Part shown: one piece after another, positions 428-3,816 of the stretch
How positions within the stretch are numbered: position 1 is the stretch's first letter
Layout: every line of letters begins with the position of its first letter
IMG/VR virus record: IMGVR_UViG_3300045988_087472
Span: 1-31,536 of that record
Reading direction: 5' to 3' (one strand)
DNA length: 31,536 nt
From: a virus
Taxonomy: Duplodnaviria > Heunggongvirae > Uroviricota > Caudoviricetes
Position numbers and translations under genes: made by a program
Notes under the pieces: model-generated
The model's input: the letters and a program-made list of their open reading frames with translations, nothing else
Database searches by the model: none
Told to the model about the DNA's origin: nothing

Positions 428-522
428 TTTTGTTCTCCACGTTATTTGCGCTGCACCGCACTGAATTCTGGTAAAAGGAAGCCCTCACCATCCGGCGATT
501 ATTGAGTTAATTACGTTTCCAT

Positions 523-544
523 AAATGCCCCCGCAGGGGCATTT
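523..544. other. Perfect 9-bp stem hairpin (AAATGCCCC / GGGGCATTT, 4-nt loop) between yfdQ-like and yfdR-like genes
   Basis: Inverted repeat read directly; no U-tract on either strand, so not a canonical intrinsic terminator. Confidence 0.3.
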
Positions 545-556
545 GCAGTAATGAAA

Positions 557-1381
557 TCAGGCGGTGAAAGTACCAATAAAGGTTTCTACTTTGCTGTCTT
601 TGAATTTCTCAACAAGCAGATCGCGAAATTCGTTAGCCATTTCTTCCTGCACCGCCTCCAGCTGAATAATGCGCAGAACAAGTACAGGACGATCGCCAGT
701 GATAATGCTGAGGCGTAATTTAAAAGAACGTTCTTTCAGACCTTCAAACGGAACGCATTTAAATTCAAATGCCACTGGCATAATGTCTTTGGTCTTCGCT
801 TCGACAGACTCCATCAGGGAGCGTTTGCCGCTGAAGTCATTGTCTTCAAAATCAGCAGTCTGGTTCGCTTCAATTGTGATTTTACGGATCGCCGCAGCCG
901 CTTTGGTTGCCTGAATGGCGTCACCATTAGCATCAAAGCCCACAAGGTTGTCGGCCCAGTCTTCAATCCATTCTGCCAGTGATTTCTGGGAGTTACGCTC
1001 GCCGTGAACAGACAACAGAGCAGAGAACGGTGCTGTCTTTTTCAGTTTGAGAGTGGCGGTGTTATCTGCGTGGCCTGGTTCATCAATAGTACCCAGGTTA
1101 AGCACACTGACGGCACGCATATTATCAGCATCGATAAAGCAGCGGGTGCCTTCATCTGCAAGATCTTTAGAATAACGGGTAAAGTCATCAATGCTGGCAG
1201 TGGAAAGCGCACCACGGAAACGGAAGCGATTTAAATTAAATTTTTCCAGGTCATGAATGCGGAAATTCTCAGGCAATGCCACAGCATCGGCACCAATCTT
1301 ACTGATAATTTCATTAACACCCTGAGCAGAAATAAGGGCATGGATTTGATTAATTGCGGTTGCGTCTAAGTTCTGAGACAT
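557..1381 (-). CDS. yfdQ: DUF2303 family phage protein, YfdQ-like (274 aa)
   Basis: Full ORF in six-frame track; SD GAGGA 7 nt upstream of ATG; sequence recalled as resembling CPS-53 prophage YfdQ. Confidence 0.8.
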
Positions 1382-1446
1382 AATAAGTCCTCACTATATA
1401 AAGATATTCAGTGATGAGATAAATAATCAGTTAATTAAAAACGATA

Positions 1447-1809
1447 TTAACGACCTGCTGCGCGGAGTTTTCCGTCAGGTTCACCGGCAAGAGTCAGTAA
1501 CTGTCCCTGGTCTTCCTGCAGAATAGTCAGGCGACCACCGCGATTGACATACATCGGCGTTTCGGTGGTGTCTTCTTCGGAAATTTTCCCGCGGTTAGTC
1601 GGGCGAACATATGAGAGTTTGTGTTTGATTTTCACACGGTTCTCATCAAATGGTTCGATTTCCAGGTTGAGTGAGACCTTACCTTTGGTTTTCGTGTTCA
1701 TCACACCGGAAGCGACTTCACTGAGAACTGCGCCGATTTTGGTTTCAAATACGCCGCCGTCCAGCTCCCCGATAAATGCCTGCACATCAGTACTGCGTTC
1801 GCTAGCCAT
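1447..1809 (-). CDS. Hypothetical early phage protein, YfdP-like (120 aa)
   Basis: The track ORF 1447..2127 is trimmed to the internal ATG at 1809..1807, which has a strong SD (GAGGAG, 7-nt spacer); the upstream extension lies in a structured non-coding-looking region. Confidence 0.65.
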   Translation of the reverse strand: MASERSTDVQAFIGELDGGVFETKIGAVLSEVASGVMNTKTKGKVSLNLEIEPFDENRVKIKHKLSYVRPTNRGKISEEDTTETPMYVNRGGRLTILQEDQGQLLTLAGEPDGKLRAAGR

Positions 1810-1857
1810 TTTGCTGCTCCTCATCATATCGACCCTGCAAGGTCGGTTAGTTTCTCC

Positions 1858-1946
1858 ACAAAACAGAGAAGAACACCTGCGGTGGCAGCCGCCCGGATGG
1901 ATTGGGTTATGAGCCCGTCGTCCGGTGATGCTCTTCTCTGTTTTGT
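1858..1946. repeat. 15-bp perfect inverted repeat (ACAAAACAGAGAAGA 1858-1872 / TCTTCTCTGTTTTGT 1932-1946) enclosing a 59-nt GC-rich loop; part of a larger structured region 1850-2110
   Basis: Read directly; a second 8-bp inverted repeat GGTACCAG/CTGGTACC lies at 1956-1963/1983-1990; overlapping ORFs have no credible starts. Confidence 0.7.
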
Positions 1947-2247
1947 AAAAAGGACGGTACCAGCCGGAAGCAAGGGTACAAACTGGTACCGCCAGGACTA
2001 CACACAGCATAAAGTTGTGGTGCCGGGTGCCTCCCGGTGCCTGGCGAAGGTTGCACACCAGACGGGTGGGTATCCACAGAAGGTCGACTGTCAGCCTCAA
2101 CCTTAACCCGCGTGCGCTGAGCCGCATTCACCACAACGCTAAGGATTCTCTCTGGTTGAAAATACTTAGCTGTTATGTGCCTGTCTTTTCACCACTTCAG
2201 GCTCGGTGGTATCCTTTTAAGCCCGTATACATAAAAGGAAAATCAAA

Positions 2248-2394
2248 TGACTTTTGATGAAAAAGAACTTGATAATGCAATTAATAAAATCATCGTAACG
2301 TCGCTCTTTTCCTGTCTCAGCGACACTCAGCAGAAACAGTTCTACGAATCGGCTTTCAACATGATCGAGCGTTGTTGTTTCTGCGATGCCGACT
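2248..2394 (+). CDS. Small hypothetical protein (48 aa), AT-rich
   Basis: Manual translation MTFDEKELDNAINKIIVTSLFSCLSDTQQKQFYESAFNMIERCCFCDAD; SD AAGGA 7 nt upstream; below the ORF-track length cutoff. Confidence 0.4.
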
Positions 2395-2409
2395 AGTTAC
2401 CTGAAAAAA

Positions 2410-2685
2410 TCAGGAAACAGTTGGCTGATGCTCTTCGAGTGCGACTTTCTGACCAATTTTCTGAAATGTGCTCTCCGAATTTGGACAAATAGAAAAAGGC
2501 CATTTCCATTCAGGGTCTGATGGAAATACTTCAGCCTGTTCCAAAGCACGGCGTAAAGAGAACACAACTCCAGCCATAATCTGATGTTTCCCATTGGCCC
2601 AGCTATCGCCGCTCTGATCTACATGGGCGGCTATGTCGTATGACCAAACGACTTCACCACTATTGTTTAAAATCTGGACTTTCAT
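2410..2685 (-). CDS. Hypothetical protein (91 aa; alternative start at 2706 gives 98 aa), immediately downstream of the repressor on the same strand
   Basis: ORF 2410..2706 in track; internal ATG at 2685 has an AGGTG SD-like sequence, the 2706 ATG has none; acidic, Trp-rich; no recognised domain. Confidence 0.5.
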   Translation of the reverse strand: MKVQILNNSGEVVWSYDIAAHVDQSGDSWANGKHQIMAGVVFSLRRALEQAEVFPSDPEWKWPFSICPNSESTFQKIGQKVALEEHQPTVS

Positions 2686-2813
2686 TTCATACACCTGCTT
2701 TAACATGAGTGCCTAGTGGCACAACATGACTCAACGAATCATCCTGGACTTCATATGCCCCAGGCGGCTACTTCGTGGGCGTCCTGCCTGTTCGTTATTT
2801 TTGATATAAAATC

Positions 2814-2880
2814 TAACTTAACTTAGTTATTATGGCAAGAGAAAACACCAAACTTTTCTTAGTTCGGTGCCTTAGTTAGA
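2814..2880. promoter_or_regulatory. Cluster of CTTAGTT repeats (2822-2828, 2858-2864, 2871-2877) downstream of the repressor gene; candidate OL-like operator/promoter region
   Basis: Three direct copies of a 7-mer within 60 bp, matching copies in the cI-cro intergenic region. Confidence 0.35.
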
Positions 2881-2891
2881 GAAGAGAGGTC

Positions 2892-3518
2892 TTAGAGTTC
2901 GTATTGAACTCCTTTGACTACACCAATGATAAGGCAATTACCATTGATAGGGATGTTGGGATACCGAGGATTTAATGGCACTAAAAACTTTTGAGGGCCA
3001 TCGATGACTAATTTTTTTACTGTAGCTTCGTTTGTTCCATCAAGTCGAGCGATGACTATTTTTCCATGACGAGGTTCTGCATCTGGATCTACAATCACTG
3101 TTGCGCCTTCTGGTATTGTTGGGAGGCCATTAGGGTTAGTCATGGAGTCACCTTTAACCTCTAATGCAAATGAGTTATCACCAATCTTTAATGATGTATC
3201 TACCCACTTGTCCACTTCACTAAACACTTCTGCTGCCCTGCACTCAGTAAACTGCCCAGCCTGAACCCACGATATTACAGGAACTCTGCGCATGTTTGTG
3301 ACGAGTTTGCCTTCAAACTCAGCACCATAAAGAATGTAATCTATTGACGTATTGAAGAACTTCGCTAATTTCGAAAGTGCCTCCCCACCAGGGGTATTGA
3401 TGTCTTTCTCCCAGTACCCCACAGCAACGTCGCTTACTCCACAAAATTTACCCAATTCTTTCTGGGACGTTCCGGTAACTCTTCTCAGAGCTTTTATACG
3501 CTGACCAACCGTTTCCAT
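2892..3518 (-). CDS. CI-type prophage repressor, XRE-HTH N-terminal domain plus S24 (LexA-like) autopeptidase domain (208 aa)
   Basis: N-terminal HTH (QKELGKFCGVSDVAVGYWE); C-terminal VKGDSM serine motif and downstream VKKLV lysine of the S24 Ser-Lys dyad; divergent from a Cro-like gene. Confidence 0.9.
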   Translation of the reverse strand: METVGQRIKALRRVTGTSQKELGKFCGVSDVAVGYWEKDINTPGGEALSKLAKFFNTSIDYILYGAEFEGKLVTNMRRVPVISWVQAGQFTECRAAEVFSEVDKWVDTSLKIGDNSFALEVKGDSMTNPNGLPTIPEGATVIVDPDAEPRHGKIVIARLDGTNEATVKKLVIDGPQKFLVPLNPRYPNIPINGNCLIIGVVKGVQYEL

Positions 3519-3615
3519 AGGAGCACCATTTCTTGAATTGCTAAGTAATCTTAGTTTTTATTGACCAAAGATAGATTTGTAATTAGCATCTAATAAAACT
3601 TAGTTTGGAGGGCGT
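3519..3615. promoter_or_regulatory. Divergent cI/cro intergenic region with candidate operators and rightward promoter
   Basis: Palindrome CTAAGTAATCTTAG at 3541-3554; CTTAGTT at 3550-3556 and 3599-3605; -35-like TTGACC at 3561-3566 with weak -10 TAGCAT at 3584-3589. Confidence 0.5.
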
Positions 3616-3816
3616 ATGACAACTGACGATATCGAAAGCTACTTCGGCAGTATTGAGAAAGTTGCTGCTTTTTTCGGCATAACAACTGAAGCCGTTTATC
3701 AGTGGCGAAACCGTCCGGGCCAGTTAATTCCAAAAGGACGTGCAGCAGAAGCTGCATATAGAACTTGCGGACGGTTGCCATTTAAACCTGAGCTTTATGA
3801 AAAATCTAATGGATAA
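3616..3816 (+). CDS. Cro-like HTH transcriptional regulator (66 aa)
   Basis: Divergent to the repressor; HTH segment FFGITTEAVYQWRNRPGQLIP; SD GGAGGG upstream. Confidence 0.8.
   Translation: MTTDDIESYFGSIEKVAAFFGITTEAVYQWRNRPGQLIPKGRAAEAAYRTCGRLPFKPELYEKSNG

Follow-up and report, generated by a model that had tools for sequence, protein, structure and literature searches.

An sRNA Cassette and a Conserved Three-Way Junction RNA in the Early-Left Leader of an SfV-like Prophage

What lies in the GC-rich interval between the repressor region and yfdP of this lambdoid prophage, and does it act as DNA, as a coding sequence or as RNA? The window, the whole stretch of 31,536 nucleotides that was analyzed, is a lambdoid prophage of the SfV type, with 99.3% identity to that phage. 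The gene order at the interval is cI - orf33 - (1850-2245) - orf32/yfdP - yfdQ - yfdR. A sequence-only reading had assigned the interval to the leftward early transcription unit and had treated it as a single structured, non-coding element. The assigned position is correct, with a LexA/S24-type repressor gene and a pL-like promoter on one side and yfdP on the other, while the single element resolves into several.

The leader between the repressor gene and yfdP

The interval is bounded by the following features.

2892-3518, minus strand: repressor gene, LexA/S24-type (LexA family or cI annotation in near-identical records)
2810-2838, minus strand: pL-like sigma-70 promoter, TTGCCA-17-TAGATT, 9/12 matches, just left of the repressor gene
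1447-1822 including the Shine-Dalgarno sequence, minus strand: yfdP, first cistron past the leader (Shine-Dalgarno GAGGAG 1822-1817, start codon 1809-1807, CDS 1447-1809; phrog_204)

The promoter at 2838-2810 is the sole minus-strand promoter-like site across 1400-3700 and is the source of the leftward early transcripts. Downstream of it, orf33 codes for a product of 98 aa without a Pfam match that falls in one PHROG, of unknown function. We consider 1850-2245 to be the untranslated leader of the leftward early operon, made up of RNA modules in series that are all on the minus strand; taken as a whole and including the mechanism proposed below for its last module, this explanation is somewhat better than an even bet. 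The region is widespread, as a query spanning 1812-2246 has matches in 2785 of 5426 complete E. coli genomes, with at least 80% query coverage in 1814. A MITE or other repeat element was ruled out, the median being one prophage-tied copy per E. coli genome.

Base composition and folding both set the interval apart. The GC content is 0.54-0.565 over 1700-2199 versus 0.37-0.48 in the flanks. The 15-bp perfect inverted repeat described earlier (1858-1872 / 1932-1946, spacer 59 nt) is present, its arms can be extended to 25 nt each at 84% complementarity, and no other perfect inverted repeat in the 31.5-kb window with a loop of up to 100 nt is as long. In 200 first-order Markov simulations the longest repeat averaged 10.6 bp and never exceeded 14 bp. 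The second inverted repeat also exists, though its length is 9 bp rather than the 8 bp first given (1955-1963 / 1983-1991). About ten 9-bp repeats per window are expected by chance, and this one is significant by its context alone, as it belongs to an 11-13 bp stem followed on the minus strand by UUUUU and conserved in homologues. The GC-rich repeats noticed around 2019-2044 were found as direct 10-mers at 2023-2032 and 2033-2042, each supplying a strand of a single hairpin at 2023-2037, CCGGG-AGGCA-CCCGG.

Both strands fold with unusual energies, the minus strand more so. Over 1850-1955 they are -51.2 kcal/mol (z = -6.9) for the minus strand and -47.3 kcal/mol (z = -5.4) for the plus strand, and over 1940-2175 the z-scores are -3.2 and -1.7, respectively. 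Aligning related prophages revealed conservation together with compensatory base changes, and no reading frame is conserved across the interval, in keeping with the earlier impression that its ORFs are not protein-like. Both results bear out the proposal of a structured non-coding RNA.

A prophage sRNA cassette with its terminator

The first modules of the leader are as follows.

2177-2213, minus strand: motif M, GAUACCACCGAGCCUGAAGUGGUGAAAAGACAGGCAC, lying 5' of the sRNA cassette; CCAC/GUGG and GCCUG/CAGGC interleave in it like a pseudoknot
2138-2170, minus strand: small hairpin GCUAAGUAUUUUC / GAGAAUCCUUAGC (inverted repeat I2), directly 5' of the sRNA
1947-2137, minus strand: element A, an sRNA of about 191 nt of the STnc100 / sRNA-17 / PasD kind, running from 5' GUUGUGGUGAAUGCG to a 3' U-run
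2014-2137, minus strand: multibranch core of A with a 9-bp closing helix, GUUGUGGUG (2137-2129) / CACCACAAC (2022-2014), inverted repeat I5
2023-2037, minus strand: hairpin CCGGG-AGGCA-CCCGG of A, matching the most conserved block of the STnc100 model
1996-2008, minus strand: single-stranded, conserved GU-rich linker GCUGUGUGUAGUC from core to terminator
1947-1993, minus strand: intrinsic terminator of A, an 11-13 bp stem plus UUUUU (1951-1947), containing the second inverted repeat

Motif M recurs near-verbatim in about 35 distinct loci with differing flanks, and one compensatory variant, GCCGG/CCGGC, was found (L024). It was absent from HK022, searched with a regular expression, and from mEp460, and had no Rfam match. 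The small hairpin that follows appears in the minimum-free-energy fold and may overlap the promoter or leader of the sRNA; other loci have AGUGCUCUUUCC or a different hairpin in its place.

Element A resembles a known RNA. The STnc100 covariance model (RF02076) matches 1945-2167 on the minus strand over its full length (model 1-206 of 206) at 41.2 bits, below the gathering score of 47 bits, with E = 3.8e-7 for a search of 1.5 kb and 8e-6 for the entire window, in which it finds a single copy. Element A carries the conserved STnc100 blocks UGGUGAAU and CACCGGGAGGCACCCGGCACCA along with the 3' terminator. The closing helix, 9 nt at 100% complementarity, is in the minimum-free-energy fold and invariant in eight frame homologues, and eight of its pairs are unchanged or wobble in all eight sequences of the A alignment. 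In four loci (L022, L031, L098 and L130) the stem of the 2023-2037 hairpin is GGUGG/CCACC and the AGGCA loop is unchanged. The terminator has a folding energy of -20.5 kcal/mol (z = -3.4) and its stem covaries in homologues; a simple terminator scan overlooked it because the loop exceeds 8 nt. A promoter scan of the window gave no convincing sigma-70 match for A or inside the module downstream, and upstream of A there is just a -10-like GAGAAT, 7 nt ahead of 2137. The 5' end of A may instead arise by processing.

A second relative is sRNA-17 of E. coli K1 RS218, encoded by an mEp460-like prophage. RACE gave its length as 193 nt, and a northern blot showed it as a discrete transcript of the lysogen (PMC7719688). 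We placed it through the published alignment and phage mEp460 (locus L035) and compared it with the window. The two RNAs, 193 versus about 191 nt long, occupy the same slot directly before element B (below) and yfdP, and the mapped 3' end of sRNA-17 is the same U-run as that of the A terminator. They have in common the first 15 nt (GUUGUGGUGAAUGCG), the closing helix (...CACCACAAC), the linker and the terminator, whereas an interior of about 100 nt is unrelated and does not align. BLAST identity between SfV-type and mEp460-type phages is confined to query positions 1-183, window 1812-1994. The expression of sRNA-17, its control by ArcA and its phenotypes are known for the RS218 copy only (PMC7719688). 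STnc100 and its relative PasD (bioRxiv 10.64898/2026.05.13.724894) resemble A in being prophage-borne and in having a multibranch core and a terminator. Their locations differ, as canonical STnc100 copies are in the late leader (downstream of stx2; near Q and lpxR; between Q and the holin gene in HK639) whereas A belongs to the early-left leader, with cI/orf33 on one side and yfdP on the other.

Since A scores below the STnc100 gathering threshold and sRNA-17 itself has no match to the STnc100 model at E <= 0.01, calling these RNAs one family relies on their frame only. By that shared frame, as opposed to the whole sequence, A probably belongs to the STnc100 / sRNA-17 / PasD kind. From phage to phage the core of A is swapped out entirely, and in Phytobacter its slot is occupied by tRNA-Ile. 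The linker is retained in nearly all variants of the cassette, the tRNA-carrying one included, making it a candidate seed or chaperone site; pairing of the linker with the 5' strand of helix P1 (below) was ruled out, as it is not maintained in the window type. Comparison of the loci shows that they have in common a cassette frame of leader, closing helix, GU-rich linker and terminator and differ by an exchange of cargo, once for a tRNA.

A conserved three-way junction past the terminator

Directly beyond the U-run of A lies a second structured RNA, element B.

1844-1952, minus strand: element B, three-way-junction leader RNA abutting the terminator U-run (covariance model R1)
1927-1946, minus strand: 5' strand of helix P1, including one arm of the 15-bp perfect repeat; pairs with 1858-1877
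1858-1877, minus strand: 3' strand of P1; pairs with 1927-1946
1893-1925, minus strand: arm P2, with an outer 5 bp, GA/UC, internal loops and an apical hairpin
1904-1916, minus strand: apical hairpin of P2, GGG-CUCAUAA-CCC; with the preceding C (1917), 14 nt identical to the anticodon stem-loop of tRNA-fMet
1879-1892, minus strand: arm P3, GCGG-CUGCCA-CCGC, variable
1853-1857, minus strand: GGAGA 3' of P1, able to pair with the terminator U-run and extend P1 by 4-6 bp
1828-1847, minus strand: hairpin C, a stem-loop found in the sequence between B and the yfdP ribosome-binding site

Element B is a three-way junction of a long P1, a conserved P2 and a variable P3 that is under selection as minus-strand RNA. 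In the alignment 93.6% of cells are paired, versus 35-52% when the partners are slid, and double changes at 12 pairs (51 cells) were matched by none of 500 shuffles. RNAalifold independently predicts the same fold, and it pairs columns 2-6 with 124-128, the GGAGA / U-run extension of P1. Compensatory changes occur in 6 of the 20 P1 pairs, and a U-G wobble is retained in 23 of 31 sequences; a C-U mismatch in P1 is conserved in 27 of 31 homologues and is a perfect pair in the window. The outer stem of P2 covaries (CCGGA/UCCGG, CCAGG/CCUGG, CCAUG/CAUGG and others), as do three of four pairs of P3, where some homologues have insertions of 20-25 nt. Some homologues also have an anti-Shine-Dalgarno-like P3 loop (CUUCCUAA or CCUCCUA), which was ruled out as a general feature; the window has CUGCCA. 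At the GGAGA segment, GUGGAGAAACUAAC is retained even in a locus that lacks B (L008) and in two Providencia loci where the top of B is replaced (L028, L030). Across genera the stem sequence of hairpin C varies and its pairing is maintained, for example as GGCGGUGGCAGCCGCC and GGCUGUGUCAGCAGCC.

Model R1 finds B in the window at 119.6 bits (E = 2.6e-28) on the minus strand versus 40.8 bits on the plus strand, with no second copy, and about 120 versus 41 bits, sense versus antisense, is seen in about 90 loci. It had no match in 914 kb of unrelated viral contigs, which came from a too-unspecific scan for GCATCACC-N(35-65)-CAGGTGC and are essentially random. Known families fare differently for the two elements. 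The view that no RNA family could be assigned to the interval gave way for A, a full-length if sub-threshold match to STnc100, and stood for B, whose body (1844-1944) had no match in Rfam 15 at E <= 10. At Rfam gathering thresholds the window and 20 homologous loci yielded one tRNA and nothing else, B included. The conserved sequence of B was likewise absent from the papers of the literature searched, among them those on yfdP, follow-ups on sRNA-17 and work on anticodon mimics. We conclude that A is a known kind of prophage sRNA and that B is a conserved RNA structure for which no description was found in that literature.

These results also bear on whether the palindrome might act as DNA (cruciform, dyad bound by a protein, or terminator for both directions) or whether a small protein is encoded there. 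In favor are the perfect 15-bp repeat, the good folding of both strands, and the plus strand, which likewise reads as a stem followed by TTTTGT. In addition, PGAP annotates a 'frameshifted hypothetical protein' over 1824-2134, and PHROGs 3651 and 33599 match ORFs in the interval. However, the B helices contain 50 G-U cells when read as minus-strand RNA versus 8 on the other strand, which together with the strand-specific model score disfavors the cruciform that had been suggested, and P2, P3 and their covariation lie outside the dyad. There are no leftward plus-strand genes that need termination. As to coding, the length of B modulo 3 is distributed 13:12:6 over 31 homologues, one of which has stops in all six frames, there are no Pfam matches, and the core of A is exchanged wholesale between phages. 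Action as DNA or as a small protein gene is therefore highly improbable.

The selected minus-strand RNA is not limited to this phage. In 19 loci located by protein synteny alone, which represent at least 10 genera, B precedes yfdP, and in many prophages of Enterobacterales a conserved copy stands before yfdP, rdgC or yfdR. Carriers with B beside yfdP include EPEC E2348/69 and EHEC. Among 93 unique copies the downstream gene is YfdP-like in 70, RdgC-like in 15, and YfdR or another in the rest, and a T-run adjoins P1 in 82, with B beginning 1-8 nt past the U-run. In mEp460 a copy of B, nearly identical over the aligned 170 nt, directly follows the U-run of sRNA-17. A short form, with a P1 of only 6-7 bp and the P2-type arm retained, sits past a terminator and ahead of holin genes belonging to three Pfam families; the Q genes upstream of it are of two families. 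Since B occurs in both the early-left and the late operon, the module tracks the slot just past the terminator and before the first cistron in both antiterminated operons.

Could B, or A and B together, be a cis-acting processive antitermination RNA, put-like on the polymerase or nut-like with an N-type protein and Nus factors, that lets leftward transcription pass terminators? The interval resembles the cis-acting putL/putR RNAs of HK022 and putL-like RNA of HK639 in being structured RNA in the early leader of a lambdoid phage without a recognizable N. The adjacent irregular stem-loops P2 and P3 are loosely like a two-stem put RNA, and a boxA-like UGCUCUUU precedes the sRNA slot in other loci. 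However, the position, copy number, sequence and fold of the HK022 and HK639 RNAs, which have two irregular stem-loops, differ from those of B. The put RNAs are directly downstream of pL and pR, in two related copies in HK022, whereas here one copy is found in an interval about 650-950 nt from the pL-like promoter (A about 670, B about 860) and behind a 98-aa ORF. B also comes after, not before, the first strong terminator, and its short form is in late operons already served by Q. Model R1 found nothing in HK022 or HK639, and by eye the annotated putL-like RNA of HK639 bears no resemblance to M, A or B. Strings like boxA occur in the window at chance level (15 versus 10.3 expected) with none in the leader, and the lone minus-strand match from pL to yfdP, at 2554-2562 with one mismatch, is inside orf33. 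The nut- or put-like role raised by the sequence-only reading thus failed on position, copy number, boxA and the searches of HK022 and HK639, and we regard it as very unlikely.

Proposed function of element B and the initiator tRNA resemblance

We favor a role for B as a cis-acting leader module on read-through transcripts. In the lysogen, the terminator of A would insulate the yfdP-yfdQ-yfdR... operon. Because B starts at the U-run of A, it would be made only upon terminator read-through, that is, in lytic development, and would then act in cis for the first downstream cistron. On such transcripts the P1 helix of 20-26 bp may absorb the terminator U-run, and an RNase III-type cut in P1 could separate the sRNA from the mRNA, leaving hairpin C near the new 5' end. 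P2 may be what is recognized by a host factor whose usual target is the anticodon arm of initiator tRNA, and that factor could set the translation or stability of the downstream gene. The leader module itself, RNase III cleavage, the protein partner and the effect on translation are all postulated from structure and context. In RS218, exchanging sRNA-17 for a resistance cassette raised yfdP from 0.49 to 47 reads (about 96-fold) and also increased yfdR (PMC7719688). Given this rise, B is probably not itself an efficient terminator if, as the deletion design implies, it was left in place in the replacement.

RNase III cuts helices of the P1 kind in the lambda N-leader, lambda sib and T7 early mRNA (R1.1). 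The long form of B has in common with these hairpins a helix of 20-26 bp, a conserved central mismatch and a place in a polycistronic leader, and with sib a full helix only on transcripts that read through a terminator. In contrast to them, B is topped by a conserved three-way junction and has a short form. Set against the RNase III criterion of about two turns of dsRNA, the long form offers 20 bp plus the 4-6 bp extension and the short form 6-7 bp. The P1 of the short form is too short for RNase III, and therefore RNase III processing cannot be the function of the conserved core. A role purely in processing or stability leaves the conserved P2 loop unexplained.

Processing has also to be weighed in another guise. 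Like the tRNA-like elements that end some long RNAs, B might be a punctuation signal. RNase P, E or Z would cut read-through transcripts at the base of P1, and the sRNA upstream would be freed with a 3' end close to its native one. The start of B 1-8 nt past the U-run would suit such a role, as would the genuine tRNA in a neighboring cassette slot in Phytobacter and the presence of both tRNAs and STnc100 in the HK639 late leader. For sRNA-17 the mapped 5' end coincides with the start of the closing helix, with no good -10 upstream, as for a processed end, and GCC follows P1 in three of the four short forms. However, B has no similarity to the tRNA model, no T-loop and no D-arm, and CCA is absent from the long form. 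Since RNase P can do without an anticodon arm, this role would not account for the part of B that is most conserved. Punctuation of this type seems quite unlikely.

The leader-module reading gives P2 a part to play. The segment CGGGCUCAUAACCC (1917-1904, minus strand) is identical to the corresponding part of E. coli tRNA-fMet, forming a stem of three G-C pairs and a 7-nt loop; the reference is the four-copy tRNA-Met gene, present in 5426 of 5426 genomes. The loop is CUCAUAA in 69, CUCAUUC in 20, CUCAUUA in 3 and other in 1 of the 93 unique copies, most of which were collected with a pattern fixing part of the P2 loop, and its conservation is unbiased only in the 19 yfdP-synteny loci, 18 of which retain CUCAU. 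The anticodon arm is all that B has in common with tRNA-fMet, the D- and T-arms and other tRNA features being absent. ARAGORN detected no tRNA gene in the window, and the tRNA model gave nothing at E <= 10 in 1400-2900. A search for sequences in the window that could pair with the P2 loop matched the B locus alone. Pairing of the loop with the downstream start region was rejected, as AUGAG is found in many yfdP alleles, not all, and is absent from holin genes.

Mimics of anticodon arms are known, for example the thrS operator, to which the P2 arm can be likened through its 14 nt in common with tRNA-fMet. P2 might function as a mimic of the anticodon arm of initiator tRNA, made in bulk only in lytic growth. 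It could titrate or inhibit a host factor directed at tRNA-fMet, for which the VapC-type anticodon nucleases of Shigella or Salmonella are examples, or it could enter the 30S P site and control downstream initiation. The 14-nt identity includes all three G-C pairs and the CUCAUAA loop, CUCAU with its closing G-C pairs is the most conserved part of B, and the P2 arm is the part retained in the short late-operon form. Both contexts are behind terminators, which would restrict expression to lytic development. The anticodon stem-loop of tRNA-fMet is where enteric VapC toxins cut, and structures of this type are cut by all VapC toxins tested (PMC7180214). However, a cloverleaf is lacking, the positions equivalent to 37-38 vary (AA, UC, UA), the loop of one locus (L029) differs, and 8 of the 93 copies have only two G-C pairs. 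A match of 13-14 nt could also arise by chance; the estimate is a few times 1e-5 for one specific hairpin, while across 31 kb of window it is not unusual for a 14-mer to match one tRNA or another. In addition, a decoy that can be cleaved would be a poor inhibitor. Functional mimicry by P2 is therefore a speculative and unlikely reading. The broader proposal is equally doubtful: that B is a new class of lambdoid-phage RNA, a tRNA-fMet anticodon mimic behind the early-left and late terminators that is made in lytic growth only and neutralizes a VapC-type factor or docks in the 30S P site, gating initiation of the cistrons that come first in lytic growth (yfdP, rdgC, holin).

The region of A and B is common in E. 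coli, yet B has neither an Rfam family nor a paper carrying its sequence in the literature searched, and annotation pipelines lay spurious ORFs and 'frameshifted' pseudogenes over it. The cassette links three literatures, those on STnc100, PasD and sRNA-17. A covariation-supported RNA behind the terminators of both long antiterminated operons suggests an unrecognized transcript-handling step past sRNA and tRNA cassettes, with sRNA release, definition of the mRNA 5' end and control of the first cistron as candidates. If the arm that looks like tRNA-fMet is functional, it would represent a new tRNA mimicry in phage-host conflict or in translational control, including that of holin expression, in which case the timing of lysis would also be affected.

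Leader of the leftward early operon

Over the 435 bases that span the interval at 1850-2245, identity to Shigella phage SfV is 99.3%, and 2785 of 5426 complete E. coli genomes contain a match to this 435-base query. The gene order, as read from SfV and one RefSeq chromosome, and the elements of the leader are as follows.

Genes and leader elements in the window
cro, plus strand
2892-3518, minus strand, cI / LexA-family repressor gene
2838-2810, minus strand, pL-like site
2410-2706, minus strand, orf33 (phrog_3195), between the repressor gene and the interval
2213->2177, minus strand, motif M, GAUACCACCGAGCCUGAAGUGGUGAAAAGACAGGCAC
2137->1947, minus strand, element A, a prophage sRNA
1952->1844, minus strand, element B, a leader RNA with basal helix P1 (1927-1946 / 1858-1877), conserved arm P2 (1893-1925) and variable arm P3 (1879-1892)
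1828-1847, minus strand, hairpin C, between element B and the yfdP ribosome-binding site
1447-1809, minus strand, orf32 (yfdP), the next gene after the interval
557-1381, minus strand, yfdQ, after yfdP and followed by yfdR

The pL-like site, just left of the repressor gene, is the sole promoter-like site on the minus strand within 1400-3700, and the interval is therefore an untranslated leader of the leftward early operon. The sequence-only reading had placed it in the leftward early unit, as both the gene order and this site bear out. An ORF of 49 aa (2247-2396, plus strand; phrog_3311 match, E = 3e-32), preceded by a good ribosome-binding site, is convergent with the orf33-like gene (2410-2706, minus strand) and is unannotated in SfV and by PGAP in the records examined. 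In the cryptic E. coli K-12-type CPS-53 prophages (loci L005 and L012) the whole leader is absent, the yfdO-yfdP junction having neither the sRNA cassette nor element B, so K-12 data sets are uninformative on both.

The G+C content of the stretch is 0.54-0.565 versus 0.37-0.48 in its flanks, and both strands fold more stably than shuffled sequences, the minus strand more strongly. The 15-bp perfect inverted repeat reported earlier (1858-1872 / 1932-1946, 59-nt spacer) was confirmed; its arms extend to 25 nt with 84% complementarity, it is the longest perfect inverted repeat of the window, and 15 bp was reached in 0 of 200 Markov simulations. The second repeat exists but measures 9 bp (1955-1963 / 1983-1991) rather than 8; a repeat of this size is expected by chance and takes its meaning only from context. 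The further GC-rich repeats are real too, being the two strands of a single hairpin (2023-2037).

The sRNA cassette and its cargo

Roughly half the interval consists of a variant form of an already known kind of prophage sRNA. In a permissive Rfam search, the region of element A (1945-2167, minus strand) matches STnc100 (RF02076) over its full length at 41.2 bits (E = 3.8e-7), which falls below the curated cut-off of 47 bits. The sequence-only reading could not assign the stretch to a known RNA family; element B had no Rfam 15 match at E <= 10, and element A has this sub-threshold one. The alignment takes in the family's UGGUGAAU block, CACCGGGAGGCACCCGGCACCA block and terminator. That terminator is the 9-bp repeat, which on the minus strand forms an 11-13 bp stem with UUUUU behind it at 1951-1947. 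A 9-bp helix of GUUGUGGUG (2137-2129) with CACCACAAC (2022-2014) closes the core, and a conserved GU-rich linker, GCUGUGUGUAGUC, lies at 2008-1996. Covariation among window-type copies is modest: the stem of the AGGCA hairpin, CCGGG/CCCGG, becomes GGUGG/CCACC in some copies, and the terminator stem likewise covaries among homologues.

A related RNA is sRNA-17 of E. coli K1 RS218, a 193-nt transcript with ends mapped by 5' and 3' RACE and a northern-blot signal, residing in a mEp460-like prophage (PMC7719688). Placed through its published alignment and the mEp460 genome, sRNA-17 starts with GUUGUGGUGAAUGCG, closes with CACCACAAC and ends at a U-run that directly abuts a copy of element B, nearly identical within the aligned stretch. 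Element A and sRNA-17 share the slot, the first 15 nt, the closing helix, the GU-rich linker and the terminator, but differ in interior sequence. The STnc100 model gave no match to sRNA-17 at E <= 0.01; a Buttiauxella copy carrying the CACCGGGAGGCACCCGG block does match it. In Phytobacter the cargo of the slot is a tRNA-Ile. By these comparisons, the cassette frame is common and its cargo exchanged between prophages. The two Phytobacter ursingii loci (L018, at 2222-2300, and L023) carry the tRNA-Ile (anticodon AAU by ARAGORN; 52.8 bits against the Rfam tRNA model) exactly at the position of the window's multibranch sRNA core, and keep the same leader, GU-rich linker, terminator and element B around it.

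No convincing promoter for element A was found on the minus strand within 1400-3700; the mapped 5' end of sRNA-17 at the first base of a closing helix, together with the tRNA analogy, suggests that the 5' end is processed. Canonical STnc100 copies lie in the late leader (in phage HK639, between Q and the holin gene, beside tRNAs), whereas element A is an early-left variant. The HK639 late leader (44331-45164) runs Q, terminator, tRNA-like genes, terminator, canonical STnc100-like sequence (UGGUGAAUCC...CACCGGGAGGCACCCGGCACCA, at about 44808-44981), two terminators and holin gene, a mixture of tRNA and sRNA cassettes like that of the early-left slot. STnc100 was independently linked to the EPEC sRNA PasD by a 2026 preprint (bioRxiv 10.64898/2026.05.13.724894).

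Element B, a three-way-junction RNA

YfdP relatives were sought in one genome per species and the DNA upstream of them was inspected. The large hairpin of element B, with visibly compensatory stem changes, precedes them in 19 loci from Shigella/Escherichia, Mangrovibacter, Enterobacter, Atlantibacter, Leclercia, Superficieibacter, Phytobacter, Kosakonia, Scandinavium and Pseudocitrobacter; a pattern scan of viral contigs added ~90 copies. An alignment of 31 diverse copies folds as a three-way junction: P1 of 20 bp, P2 with a covarying 5-bp outer stem, a GA/UC step, asymmetric internal loops and an apical GGG-CUCAUAA-CCC hairpin, and a variable P3 of at least 4 bp, with 20-25 extra nucleotides in some copies. 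In this alignment 93.6% of cells are paired, with both-side changes in 12 pairs (51 cells), values that 0 of 500 shuffles reached; sliding the partners by 1-3 columns lowers pairing to 35-52%. RNAalifold, run independently, gives the same junction and lengthens P1 by pairing the terminator U-run with a conserved GGAGA at 1857-1853. Compensatory changes in related prophages, suggested as a check, are thus present in the stems of element B and modestly in element A.

A DNA cruciform had also been proposed. The helices contain 50 G-U cells on the minus strand versus 8 on the opposite strand, and the covariance model derived from this alignment gives 119.6 bits for the minus strand versus 40.8 for the plus, with like behavior in ~90 loci; these values favor a minus-strand RNA and leave the cruciform unsupported. 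The model found no second copy in the window and had zero matches in 914 kb of unrelated viral contigs.

Nor was a conserved protein-coding frame found across element B among homologues: lengths modulo 3 are distributed 13:12:6, in one homologue stops interrupt each of the six frames, and ORFs overlapping the interval matched no Pfam family. PGAP calls a 'frameshifted hypothetical protein' over 1824-2134 and in homologous records, and ORFs spanning both elements match PHROGs 3651 and 33599; given the variation modulo 3 and the wholesale exchange of the element A core, these are best read as spurious ORF families on conserved non-coding DNA. By folding, conservation, covariation and the lack of a kept frame, the structured non-coding RNA reading is correct. 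The 15-bp repeat is part of a widely distributed and apparently undescribed leader RNA, its structure well supported and its conserved sequence found in no paper within the literature searched.

A T-run adjoins P1 in 82 of 93 unique long-form copies. The first gene downstream is YfdP-like in 70, RdgC-like in 15 and YfdR or others in the remainder, so element B is not tied to any one gene. In two loci (L036 and L056) it is fused directly to the hairpin found between yfdQ and yfdR in the window (509-550, GCCCCUGCGGGGGC); yfdP and yfdQ are therefore deleted there and yfdR is the first cistron. In Providencia the lower helix and the GUGGAGUAAUAAC string persist under a different, AT-rich top, and Buttiauxella has neither hairpin nor terminator while retaining UGUGGAGAACUAACC. 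Two Providencia loci (L028 and L030) have upstream of yfdP a long AT-rich hairpin without P2 or P3, and a CsrA-like ORF (MLILTRR...GIEAPKE...) just upstream of the terminator.

A short form, in which P1 is G+C-rich and 6-7 bp long, P2 is the same and P3 varies, lies directly past a terminator; Q genes from two families precede it, and holin genes from three Pfam families follow after 40-60 nt.

Short-form copies, by locus
L037, 104-187
L053, 1928-2014
L071, 1917-1971
L144, about 12000 (plus strand)
L097, 7944-8060

The L097 copy comes straight after the first terminator beyond a promoter-like site that lies downstream of Q. Behind this copy are an A-like sRNA and a second junction-like hairpin, GGCC...GGCC.

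Antitermination, processing and the P2 tip

The proposed nut- or put-like roles are unsupported by position, copy number, similarity searches and boxA count. put RNAs sit immediately past pL and pR, with two related copies in HK022, whereas here a single copy stands ~650-950 nt from the promoter behind an ORF, and element B additionally behind a terminator. A motif-M regular expression had no match in HK022, the element B model none in HK022 or HK639, and the annotated putL-like RNA of HK639 appears by eye unrelated to the window's elements. boxA-like strings occur in the window at chance level only. In other loci a boxA-like UGCUCUUU stands just ahead of the sRNA slot. In many loci (L010, L015, L016, L018, L026, L008 and L097) a boxA-like string, AGUGCUCUUUCC or GUCGCUCUUUUUGA, comes before GUUGUGG at this place; the window carries a small hairpin (2138-2170) instead. 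Motif M contains two interleaved complementary pairs (CCAC/GUGG and GCCUG/CAGGC) and is found nearly unchanged ahead of the cassette in ~35 distinct prophage loci, with one compensatory variant only; it could act as RNA, forming a pseudoknot in the primary transcript, or as DNA, being a site close to the cassette promoter.

The mEp460 homologue of element A is made in the lysogen as a discrete RNA, and its removal de-represses yfdP and yfdR: with a resistance cassette in place of sRNA-17, yfdP rose ~96-fold and yfdR also rose (PMC7719688). In the lysogen, the terminator of element A would insulate the downstream operon. Element B is itself unlikely to be a strong terminator, since yfdP is up in a mutant whose deletion design, stated as the sRNA's own coordinates (PMC7719688), leaves element B in place. 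From its position behind terminators, the core of element B would be transcribed only upon polymerase read-through, and would act in cis on those transcripts. The long form has a 20-26 bp helix which takes in the terminator U-run and would be a plausible RNase III substrate, comparable to the T7 early sites, the lambda N-leader and lambda sib. Cleavage within the P1 helix would release the sRNA, and hairpin C (1828-1847) would then lie close to the 5' end of the yfdP message. The processing idea is weakened by the short form, which cannot serve as an RNase III site; nor would processing alone explain the conserved P2 tip.

That tip, CGGGCUCAUAACCC (1917-1904, minus strand), has a 14-nt identity with the anticodon stem-loop of E. 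coli initiator tRNA, checked against the four-copy tRNA-Met gene present in 5426 of 5426 genomes. CUCAU is retained in 18 of the 19 synteny-derived loci, a set unbiased as to the loop. Positions 37-38 are variable, L029 alone carries a different loop, and two G-C pairs instead of three are present in 8 of 93 copies. The remainder of element B has no other tRNA-like feature, and tRNA finders detect nothing there. The likeness to tRNA-fMet, the best-conserved feature of element B, is a lead. With low probability, the P2 arm may be a decoy for VapC-type toxins, as enteric VapC toxins cut tRNA-fMet within this anticodon arm and every VapC tested cleaves such structures (PMC7180214). In the more likely reading, the arm would be a host-factor recognition site, tuning translation or stability of the first cistron. 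As short and long forms both lie directly behind terminators, the core tracks that position, and it marks the point just past a terminator and ahead of the first cistron in both long antitermination-dependent operons.
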